Assembly: GCA_030390025.1 (NCBI GenBank)
Contig: CM059432.1
Coordinates: 82,090,001 to 82,154,000 of the forward strand
From: Squalus acanthias
Taxonomy: Eukaryota
Reading direction: 5' to 3'
Length of the DNA stretch: 64,000 nucleotides
Below are positions 4,260 through 44,719 of the stretch, piece by piece; positions within the stretch are counted from its first letter, which is position 1; each line of letters opens with the position of its first letter. Below the pieces are notes generated by a model. It had not been told where the DNA came from. It searched no databases and saw only the letters and a program-made list of their open reading frames with translations. The position numbers and the translations under genes were made by a program.

Positions 4260-4405
4260 TTCTCTAGTCTTTCTTCATAACTCTGACCTCTAAGACTAGA
4301 AATCAGCCTGGTTCTTCTCTGCCCTTTCTCCAAGGCTTGAATGCTTCCCTTATGTCTCGGTGACCAGAACTGAACCCAGTATATAAGGTATAGTCTGACC
4401 AGAGA
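4260..4405 (-). mobile_element. Upstream continuation of the minus-strand CR1 at 2388-2741
   Basis: Reverse strand carries the VQFWSP-encoding segment (ggttcagttctggtcaccg) that precedes the 2388-2741 piece in CR1 ORF2. Confidence 0.75.
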
Positions 4406-5629
4406 TTGAATCCTTGGAGGTTTGGTCTAGCAGGGCAGTAACTATGTCAAATAACCTAGACCGGTAGAGTGGTCCTCACCTATGAGGCCTTCCTCTTCAG
4501 CCAAGCATTGAGCTGCAGGAGGGAACAGGCACGGAGCTGTGCGGAATGGGGGCATCCACCTAGCCAGTCAGATCAGCTGAATCAAACCTAGCAATCGATA
4601 GGATGAGAGATGTCACAGCCAACTTGCCCTCACACCTGGTCTGTGAACCGATTGCAGGGACCTGCCATGATACACGCTGCCAACAAAAAATAATTTGCAG
4701 GAAACAGAATAAAATTATCCCTCACAAACTCCAGCTTGTGTGCATTATGTGTATTATAACCCAGTCTTCAAGGATATAACACATTTAAGGGTTGAGATGG
4801 TGTTGATAAACTGATTTAGTTTGTGCCTTAATGTGTTACAGTACTGCCTTGTAACACTCTCCAATCTGTGTGTTATGAGTCATATTATCTAGAGGATGGT
4901 GAACTCTTTTGTTTAAATTCACCATCTAAATTAATAAATAATGGTCAAATGTCATGGCCCTAAAATCGGAAGAATTGGCAGTGGCTAAAGTAAAGGTAAT
5001 TATAATATATATTATGGTGGACGCTGGGCAGAAATTATTGTAGTAATCTAATTTGAAGGTTTAGACAATGAACAGGCTGCTCAAATTTGGCTCTTATAAT
5101 TTATATCACTTGAACCCCCTCTGGCATCACTCATCCACTCCCCTTTATATCATATACACTGCCTATACAACTTCCTGGCACCTAATGATCACACAATAGA
5201 CTTGCACTGATCATATCACAATTGTCAGTCCTTCATTGAAGGCATTATCATACACTACTGTAACTATAGAGTATCCTGGCTATCAATGCCACCATCAGCC
5301 AGCAAAAAAAATATATAAATAGAGTAAAACTATTGTAACTGCACAGAATGTTATTAGAAGCAAGCATTTAATATCTTCTATACATTTCATTGATAAGGCA
5401 TCATCACATGGCATAATAGTGGATATGTCATACAATATGATAAACATAAAATATGATAAACATACAATATGATACACATATCCACAATTGAGGCTGCCCA
5501 CACAATTTAAAAATGATGAAATTAACATTGAATTGTGCTTAATCTCAAGATCACATAAATTTACATTTTATATGGCTGGCCATGATATTGACTGTTTATA
5601 TCATTTGAGCATTTCCAAAAGGAAAGATT

Positions 5630-7386
5630 GGGGGAAATTTTTCAGGGGGTCAGTTTGGTGATGGGTCAACTGGGAAAAAATTTTTTGACAGCGGGTAGGG
5701 AGCCCACTGTCAACCCACCTCCTAGTCTCCCAGATGTTGGGTCTGTCAACACGGAACAGACCCGACACCAAGCGGCGGGGGAGGCAATTGACATCATTTG
5801 AGAGATAGTTAAGAGGCAATTAAATAGTATTTTAAGCTTACCTTTAGATTTTTAGAGTTCGCCAATGGCTTCCCCGCTGCTCGGGGATCACGTCAGGTAA
5901 GGAGGTCGGGTGTTGTGTCAGCATGGGATGATTTATTTACTTGACAGCTACAAATGGTCTATAAAAGCTCCCATCTCACAGCTGTTCACTTTGCAAGGTT
6001 AGAAGCTGTTGCTTACTGCATTTGGAAGACAGATTGAGGTTTAGGCAGCTTGCAAGTGTTTGGAGCAAACTCTGTATCCAGTGTCACCTCACTGGAACAA
6101 CCTCTCTCACCATTGACAGATCGCTTCTGTCATCTCAACCTCACCTGCCATCTATTCCATCAGCATCGGTGCCCTTGAAACTATCTCACCTTGGTCCTCA
6201 GAATCCCACCACAATCAGCCCCAACACCAGCAGCACCAGGCACACCAGCAGCACCAACAACAACACCAAACTTCTCCGCAATCACTTGATGCTGCACAGG
6301 ACACAGGGCATCAGCACCTGACCACATTGCTGCCTGGGAGGCCAGGGATGGCCTCACCATGGCCAGATTTACTTCACTTGATGCTGTAAACCCTGGCTGC
6401 CACATGATGTGCCAGGTTGACACCACCCCACACCAGCACCCTATAAAGCATCCCTACAATGCCCAAGCCATTCCTTTCATACTCATCACCATTGCGGGGG
6501 GTACCGTTATGTCTCACCATTCACTGCAACTCACTAAGCCACTTCCAAAGGTGCACACAAATCTGTCCAAGAACGCAAAGTGTTGAAAATAAAGATTTCA
6601 ATGTTTGACAGCACATTAACAGAAACTTCACATGAACATTGGCTAAAACACCCAAGTGCCTATCTTTGTGTGTTGTTAGTTGATATGATTGGACTAGGAT
6701 GAGGGTGAGTGTGAGGGGTGGCTAGTGAGATGGGGAAGTGATAATGTAGATAGGGAGGGATGGCTGAAGTTGCAAGGTATGTTGGTGTGAGTAAGGATTT
6801 GCAGGAGTAGGGTAGGGAAGGCAGAGTGATGGGGATGTGATAGGTCGCACAGCAGGATGAGGTTGAGTGTGGCTTTGCAGTAATGTTTTGTGATCTACTG
6901 AGATCATTGAAACGTTGGCGCCACTGCAGCCTGGTCCTCCTGACAACATCCCTGCTTGTGTCCTCCTCTGCAATGAGCAATGTGCAACCAGGCTGCATTG
7001 ATCTCCTGGGGAGGTCTCTTCCGCTCATGGGAAGGGAAGAGGACCTCCCTGTTTGCTGTGACTGAGTCATGGGAGAGCCTGGGTGCAGCCGTGCACCTCT
7101 GTGCAGTGCTTGTCAGTGTTTGCAGCACCTCAATGCTGTAGAACACTGACAGCAGAACTGTCAAAATCAATTTGCGCATGGTCCCTTTAAGGAATCCGGC
7201 TGATTACACGTCATCAAATGACGTCATCAGACCCGCTTCCTCTAATTGGCCGGGAAACACGCTGGGTGGGCTTAACAAGCCCAATCATCGTAAAATTAAT
7301 TTCACAATGCGGGCTGGAGCCAGTAGCGGGGTCGCACCCCGCCACCGACCCCAGCCGCACCAGACTCGGTCTGCAAAATCATGGCC
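5630..7386 (-). mobile_element. Non-autonomous PIF/Harbinger derivative (about 1.75 kb) with Myb/SANT-like ORF remnant, copy 1
   Basis: Closely similar along its length to 28676-30415. Minus strand encodes AAPRLSHDS...RKRPPQEINAAWLHIA...RDVVRRTRLQWRQRFNDL, a Myb/SANT (MADF-like) signature. Confidence 0.8.
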
Positions 7387-20757: not shown

Positions 20758-21342
20758 CTCACCTCTTAATGTACATGGTATAGAGTCTGGTGATCAGCTT
20801 GGAAAGTGTTGCTTGCTGAATGTTGGAGGATGCTTCCAATTGTGTGCGAAGTGGAGCACATCAGAACAAGGGCTACTCAGGGATGTATTACAAGGGTGTG
20901 TGCAATTCTGAGCTAGTCTGGGCCTTGTTGATATAAATTGTGGTATTACATCCCTACCTAACCTTTGTTCTTTCTTATATCACATTTGTTTGTCGTGTCC
21001 ATCTATACCTCTTGTATGTTTTGGTATCTGTGGATTTATATATTTATTTGAGTATCTATATAACATATACATGTCAGACATAAAGGTAGATTTTACAAAT
21101 TTGCACTCTGTGTGGAGCGCCGCATGCCAGGAGTGCATATCATGTGCCGAGGTCAATTACCAATATGCACTCCTGGGTCAATAGACCCACAGGACTTTGT
21201 GTGATCTGAAAAACCTGTGTGGACCAATGATCCCCACATCTGAATTCCTGATATGCGTCCCCTGCGTGAAATCCACTCTTAATTCTCTCTCTGTCTCAGT
21301 CACTTGTGGAAATGTGATTTACGACAAGATCACAAGATAAGA

Positions 21343-21557
21343 GTGAGAAGTCGCACAACACCAGGTTATAGTCCAACAGGTTTATTTGAAATCACAAGCT
21401 TTCGGAGCGCTGCTCCTTCGTCAGGTGAAGTCCACTTCACCTGACGAAGGAGCAGCGCTCCGAAAGCTTGTGATTTCAAATAAACCTGTTGGACTATAAC
21501 CTGGTGTTGTGCGACTTCTCACATTTGTCCACCCCAGTCCAACACCGGCATCTCCAC
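21343..21557. mobile_element. Penelope-like terminal insertion forming a perfect 89-bp-arm palindrome
   Basis: 21343-21431 is the exact reverse complement of 21434-21522 (loop CC). 15-bp direct repeat ATCACAAGATAAGAG at 21329-21343 and 21558-21572. Confidence 0.88.
21437..21473 (+). ncRNA. Minimal type-I hammerhead ribozyme motif (mirror copy on the minus strand at 21392-21428)
   Basis: Stem I TCAC/GTGA; core CTGACGA plus one extra A; stem II GGAGC-agc-GCTCC; GAAA; minimal stem III within the palindrome AAGCTT; predicted cleavage after CUU (21469). Confidence 0.8.
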
Positions 21558-21804
21558 ATCACAAGATAAGAGGAGGGAAGGCCATTTGGTCCATCTGAGC
21601 TTATACATCCACAACAAACCATCAGTCCTTCTTATAATATAAATCCGGTCAAAATACATAAGGAGTTAAATAAGGCACCTACAGCCAGTATCTTGTCCCA
21701 AACTTAGCTCAATACAAATATTTCAACTTTAGTTTGGTTGCCTGCAAAGCTGAGGGAGGAGCCAAACTACTTTTGAACAGATATAAATTGTATGATTTAC
21801 ACGT

Positions 21805-44040: not shown

Positions 44041-44719
44041 TTTCGATAATAAAAATATTTTCAAACAAAAGGTAAATCAAGCATTGGAGTCCCAGCAAGT
44101 GGTCTAGTTGAACTCTTGGCCATTTAACTGGGTGAATTTAGCCAGTTTTTGCACAACCGCTGAATTGAGCACTTTTGTATTCTGGGACACTCACTTATTG
44201 TGATGTTTTACTGCATATTCATTTAATCGCACATGAATCTCTGGAACCAATCTATTTTCATTTAACAATATGTGAAAATAAAATATTTATTTGCATAATT
44301 ACTTTAATAGTTGGGTTGAATTTCCTCTTCATTATTTTTAGCACACCAGTTGATGAGTTCACATCAATTCAACCTGCACTCTTTTGAATAGGAACTTATG
44401 CAAACAAATTAAAGGGCACTAAAAATAGTGCACATCATCAACATTTCGTATCTTCTCACTCTTCCCTTGGAGAACAGTGTGAAGTAGTGGAAGGATTCGC
44501 AGGCTGATTAACAGTCTGACTGGCCGCGTTAACGCTCCTTCCGTGGCCATAACCATCTTTATACCAGACGATAGGGTGGTTGGTCCTATACGGCGGGAGG
44601 GTTTTATGGGCTCCCACAACCTGTACAATGAAGGGGGGCCACCCGCACCCACCCACCAGACGTGAGTATCCCACTGGTTGTCAATCCAGAATTCAGAGTC
44701 AGAGCTCCGACTCCACTCG

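Follow-up and report, generated by a model that had tools for sequence, protein, structure and literature searches.

Within the analysed window, a 64,000-nt stretch of Squalus acanthias contig CM059432.1, a GT-AG intron on the plus strand (13985-35427) lies between exons of a sulfatase gene and holds a short insertion, as an earlier note on this DNA had placed it. Pfam gives only the Sulfatase domain for the host gene, which we take to be SULF. The insert is made of two copies of the 5' leader of a Penelope-like element (PLE), one with the element's tail and one without, inside a 15-bp target site duplication (TSD). The two TSD copies, ATCACAAGATAAGAG, are direct repeats on the plus strand at 21329-21343 and 21558-21572, and the sequence is single at the empty site. 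The tail-less left arm (21343-21431, minus strand) has its predicted +1, the A of ACTTCACC, at 21431; its inner end point coincides with a predicted second reverse transcription (RT) start site, and G21343 is shared between the end of this arm and the last base of the left TSD copy. The tail-bearing right arm (21434-21522, plus strand) is the same leader from the predicted +1. The arms are exactly complementary over 89 bp and enclose the junction CC (21432-21433, no strand); arms, 2-nt spacer and 15-bp TSD all agree with the earlier description. The first C of the junction is not native upstream sequence of the window's subfamily and was likely copied from an RNA cap, while the second is either the native -1 base or untemplated. 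An unpaired tail of 35-39 nt (21523-21557/61, plus strand) stands between the right arm and the right TSD copy, which its final ATCA overlaps. Because this tail sits on the right side only, the term palindrome, applied earlier, holds for the perfect arms and does not describe the entire insert. The window copy has no ORF. In the predicted leader fold (21486-21552, plus strand), TGTTGGACT pairs with AGTCCAACA of the tail and encloses the inner arm end point, resembling the AC-rich stem-loop at the reverse-transcription start of the Anolis element Poseidon_Ac (PAc). Two inverted repeats lie upstream of the insertion, at 21127-21176 with 14-bp perfect arms and at 20863-20971 with 29-bp arms at 79%.

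A hammerhead motif is present on each arm, as had been claimed. The plus copy (21437-21473) has its predicted cut after CUU at 21469, and its mirror on the minus strand (21392-21428) between 21396 and 21395. The plus motif comprises a stem I of TCAC/GTGA, the core CTGACGA, an unpaired A, a stem II of GGAGC/GCTCC, GAAA and the palindromic AAGCTT. Across 19 variants, 98.9% of cells are paired, with compensatory changes in stems I and II; none of 500 shuffles reaches that pairing level, a count that, the sequences being related, is not a probability. The kept core and the compensatory stem changes show that the motif is conserved in the parent element, and they support the proposed assignment to the minimal type-I hammerheads. 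Like minimal PLE hammerheads, it has a short stem I, an unpaired base before stem II, G10.1-C11.1 and a palindromic 15.2-16.2 (PMC4209133). Dual motifs on opposite strands are reported for the minimal PLE hammerheads of Schistosoma, where they lie 100-700 bp apart, whereas here the distance is about 10 bp and stem II has 5 pairs (PMC4209133). L040, L049, L071 and L081 represent subfamilies of which some carry a U4C core variant (CCGACGA) and others have CUC, not CUU, at the predicted cut site.

The hammerhead-model search recommended in the earlier note gave a negative result, in that no Rfam hammerhead family reached its gathering score or appeared when E was relaxed to 10; the insert matched generic hairpin (miRNA) models alone, all of them below threshold. 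Folding of a single arm was no better than that of shuffles (z -0.9 to -1.4), and cofolding two copies failed to produce the dimeric hammerhead structure, a result that is silent on activity. Genome-wide, arms end near the predicted cleavage site in 127 (-1), 385 (at the site) and 295 (+1) cases, and these counts are confounded: 9 of 30 site copies inspected by eye owe their end to a 4-nt overlap (GTGA) with the partner arm, and many matches at +1 of the cut site look like CpG decay of a variant. Minimal PLE hammerheads are reported not to cleave as monomers (PMC4209133), and PLE hammerhead cleavage is reported to need the element's protein (PMC11167929). Since they are inactive as monomers or protein-dependent, masking by a hairpin would add little.

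The Penelope-like origin suggested earlier is supported by tail-matched full-length relatives that encode an RT+GIY-YIG ORF. Their order is leader (with hammerhead and tail), ATG, RT+GIY-YIG ORF, a 3' region with a TATA box, and the leader again. In one relative, L182, the same leader and an identical tail run directly into the ATG of an 848-aa ORF that begins with Met and contains RVT_1 (Pfam, E 2e-9). Its 3' region has a TATATATG box about 30 nt ahead of ACTTCACC, followed by a second leader with tail, and these two direct leaders are accompanied by an upstream 5'-truncated inverted copy without tail. Another relative, L051, matches GIY-YIG at E 3e-4 with a score of 21.6, just under the curated cut-off of 22.6 (Pfam). 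The features of an endonuclease-bearing (EN+) PLE were found together, namely an RT+GIY-YIG ORF in the autonomous partner, direct and inverted pLTRs, a one-sided tail of 30-40 nt and a TSD. A Cys-rich RT-EN linker, C-x4-C-x2-C by eye, precedes the GIY-YIG motif. A Zn-finger-like Cys motif between RT and EN is described as marking the Neptune and Nematis clades (PMC8557442), and by its linker the parent protein would be of Neptune/Nematis type, a feature that sets it apart from the protein of PAc. The L182 ORF is frameshifted within EN, and one identical endonuclease-region frameshift is carried by L182:300-900 (inverted) and 5700-5770 (direct); the shared frameshift points to the same defective source for both copies, which likely moved in trans.

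EN+ PLEs with an inverted pLTR and a one-sided tail include D. virilis Penelope, A. vaga Pen2a and the Naiads (PMC2377424, PMC3846280, PMC8557442). As described there, these elements share with the present family an inverted 5'-truncated copy at the 5' end, a tail of 30-40 nt on one side, a TSD, a TATA/Inr-like motif in the repeat and a single RT+GIY-YIG ORF. Unlike in those elements, the arms here are reduced to the 5' leader with no ORF between them, and the family numbers tens of thousands of copies, so that junction types can be counted. In PAc, which was studied in vitro, the hammerhead is reported near the pLTR-ORF junction, as here, although the hammerhead and tail of PAc lie inside the ORF start and those of the present family upstream of the ATG (PMC11167929). 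A non-LTR retrozyme, which consists of head-to-tail repeats with same-strand hammerheads (PMC7229834), was rejected because the two motifs here lie head to head on opposite strands. Inverted pLTRs and opposite-strand hammerheads have already been published.

The positions at which arms end bear on the start of the element's RNA. In a position-ordered sample of the family, positions +1 and +2 of the predicted start together account for 21 of 108 arm ends, compared with about one per position just upstream. Among arms with the same stem-II type as the window copy, the genome-wide counts by last native position are 365 at -1, 2,348 at +1 and 1,476 at +2; a native subfamily variant explains 5 of 30 inspected +1 matches and 3 of 30 inspected -1 matches. 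Read by eye, the 100 matches listed have G before +1 in 67 cases, T in 21 and A in 12; of 25 true ends that were inspected, 17 have G there, against a G frequency of 24% in the partner strand. This G often coincides with a partner-arm G, which indicates that microhomology contributes. Before +2, C is found in 51, T in 26 and G in 23 among the matches listed (by eye), and the C fits the partner arm's extra base. In other retrotransposons, an untemplated 5' G has been attributed to cap copying (PMC3287187), and in the window the left arm stops at +1 and a non-native C comes next, which is what cap copying predicts. From the insertion ends and the TATA/Inr spacing, we infer a start at ACTTCACC and an RNA cap. 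A direct join to host DNA is seen in 14 of 30 arms that end at -1 (L244-L273) and in only 2 of 30 that end at +1 (L214-L243).

A 32-mer taken from the family's tail occurs without mismatch 32,808 times in the 3.7-Gb genome. The position-ordered sample consists of the first 90 of 100 listed tail matches, in contig order, from the first 8.3 Mb of one contig, and since an exact 32-mer was required, it favours young copies. An inverted tail-less copy lies upstream in 62 of the 90. Subtraction of 7 unresolved long junctions and 1 segmental duplicate leaves 54 resolved junctions, of which 27 show microhomology, 20 contain filler and 7 are blunt; 49 different arm-end pairs occur among them. The outer ends are nearly fixed, clustering within a few bases, and the inner ends are variable. 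Two duplicates were removed before the TSD and outer-end counts and before the arm-allele counts. A TSD of at least 8 bp is present in 72 of 78 family copies, with a length of 12-13 bp in 53 of the 72. The outer ends overlap the target by at least 2 bases in 32 of 72 copies on the tail side and 33 of 72 on the other side (L001-L150), which suggests short primer-template pairing; PAc, in contrast, is reported to prime without homology (PMC11167929). The window's rare AAACCTG variant marks a subfamily of 981 arms that has its own long copies.

An assembly fold-back artefact would be compatible with the finding that, in the sequencing runs examined, no one contig spans the entire palindrome, as expected anyway for a high-copy repeat. 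This explanation can be set aside with near certainty, as the insert has a TSD and a one-sided tail, and contigs of a second individual, from a separate study, cross both flank junctions. The empty site is clean in two related species, whose contigs cross it uninterrupted with the 15-bp target present once, at a flank divergence of about 3% (15/444 and 13/404 letters in one of them). Being filled in the second individual and empty in the related species, the site holds a real insertion younger than that species split. The absence of arm mismatches, which the earlier note ascribed to recent insertion or arm conversion, is a sign of youth; perfect arms are common (21 of 55 arm pairs), so conversion is unnecessary. 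The same note had raised a distinct non-autonomous palindromic unit, SINE- or MITE-like, that moves whole as a self-silenced ribozyme cassette. Such a unit would accord with 1,356 copies in which both arms end within about 12 nt of the window's centre, and with the best 40 matches, all near-identical units of 215-220 bp, although the latter uniformity is selected, the ranking having been by likeness to the query. It is nonetheless very improbable. The 58 inspected copies of that class have 30 different centres, the commonest occurring on 7 subfamily backgrounds and the window's own on 4 backgrounds in 5 copies, and the head-to-head architecture spans about 100 bp to more than 6 kb. The genome check for both-arm copies with identical junctions thus returned the variable inversion points that had been named beforehand as the refuting outcome. 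Together with the diversity of end pairs, both hammerheads being whole in only 21 of the 54 inverted insertions speaks against a ribozyme cassette, and a MITE or unit-moving palindromic SINE was rejected for want of a constant interior. Variable centres across subfamily backgrounds imply that each insertion forms its palindrome anew and does not take it over from a master copy.

The locus is read, with considerable confidence, as a short head-to-head inverted insertion of an EN+ PLE, likely made via twin target-primed reverse transcription of a capped 5' leader. A purified PLE is reported to cut the two strands of its target and extend them from two internal RT starts, one on either side of the tail, and is predicted to be dimeric (PMC11167929). 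Two such starts account for one tailed and one tail-less arm. The element's protein would cut the intron DNA with a stagger; cDNA synthesis from one DNA end would begin near the ATG, where the tail ends, and from the other some 35-39 nt more internally. The cDNAs would both extend to the RNA 5' end, where the cap would be copied as an extra C, and the two cDNA ends would then be joined head to head. In L1 twin priming, cDNA is likewise primed from both ends of the target, and microhomology joins the two products, which generates an inversion. L1 primes twice on one RNA at non-overlapping places, whereas here the two arms copy one and the same stretch from two fixed starts.

The same element could instead have inverted by self-priming, with one cDNA or an antisense transcript folding back and copying itself, as has been proposed for rotifer Penelope elements with head-to-head palindromic junctions (PMC3846280). 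Beyond being the published interpretation of such junctions, self-priming agrees with the microhomology found at half of the resolved junctions, some of which are centred on short native palindromes such as AAGCTT, and with arms that usually match, the rare allele included. Arm lengths argue otherwise: priming of a cDNA on the tail side could not leave the tail-less arm as the longer of the two, the arrangement found in 22 of 54 insertions (it is the shorter in 18 and equal within 3 nt in 14), and a cDNA begun on the opposite side has no source for the tail. Neither arms of mixed subfamily nor cap-like bases, which occur on one arm or the other or on both (L144), fit self-copying. Stem-II alleles differ between arms in 21 of 57 pairs, in 14 of which the differing alleles are each known elsewhere as matched pairs, and several diagnostic sites differ at once in L077, L113, L142 and L089. 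On balance, self-priming is unlikely, and the junction statistics favour two separately primed cDNAs on capped sense RNA.

How many RNA templates twin priming would use is a further question. At a second diagnostic site, arms differ in only 6 of 72 pairs versus 42% expected from random pairing; random pairing would give 42% and 80% discordance at the two sites, and most pairs match far more often. For most pairs, the window copy included, one template, or two from one source locus, therefore suffices, while in a sizeable minority of the family the two arms would likely derive from different template copies. Two templates are supported for that minority of pairs only, and the same pairs could also have arisen through ectopic gene conversion or through slippage, with the stem-II loop as its hot spot. 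Concordance of the rare ACC allele was discarded as evidence on one or two templates because single mutations from far commoner alleles can mimic discordance. The wider proposition that PLEs are two-template machines, in which a protein dimer with two capped sense RNAs would prime both ends of a staggered break from two fixed internal starts and the cDNAs would be joined head to head, is given an even chance. If true, it would overturn the antisense self-priming model, with tens of thousands of copies, their cap-marked ends and their mixed-subfamily arms as a countable record, and would mean that most insertions of such a retrotransposon create a fresh ADAR-edited hairpin.

Lacking a TATA box and an ORF, the window insert is likely a dead-end product. 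It would be transcribed only within the host pre-mRNA, where its hairpin would likely be ADAR-edited and the hammerhead would not fold. The long dsRNA hairpin anticipated in the earlier note is upheld as a prediction, at -174 kcal/mol. In contigs of three presumed-RNA runs from one study, A>G or T>C changes occur at six arm positions at 2-11%, compared with 0.08-0.75% in a DNA run from another animal, the coverage of the RNA runs being at family level with the flanks of the window locus uncovered. Two of the six positions are mirror images, no other change class is similarly enriched in these contigs, and none of the sites listed lies in the unpaired tail. The pattern fits ADAR editing of the inverted arms, and the suggested role as an ADAR substrate would stand at the level of the family. 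Heavy ADAR editing of a lizard Penelope, at more than 40,000 sites, has been reported (PMC5625713). This element and the palindromic frog Harbinger resemble the present family in placing a self-folding repeat in transcripts with A-to-I changes; the palindrome of the frog Harbinger is the consensus, whereas here it is likely rebuilt at each insertion (PMC5625713).

Taken singly, the locus is ordinary: a neutral-looking insertion, one of thousands, left by an element of a known kind. How inverted pLTRs arise has been described as unresolved (PMC8557442, PMC3846280), and short, young, high-copy insertions with known ends make the competing insertion models testable by counting. The family also points to a large load of self-folding dsRNA in the pre-mRNAs of this lineage. 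In the open-access literature (PMC, bioRxiv), nothing was found on twin priming or head-to-head microhomology joining in PLEs, on the PLEs of this lineage or on family-level PLE junction statistics of this kind; Repbase and Dfam probably hold the family. In an intron of the same host gene, positions 44489-44560 (minus strand) match the Rfam model of the CPEB3 (HDV-like) ribozyme at 39.9 bits against a gathering score of 35, a match that probably derives from a retroelement 5' end. A degenerate copy of 7SK RNA (Rfam, 102 bits) lies at 4365-4637 on the minus strand.
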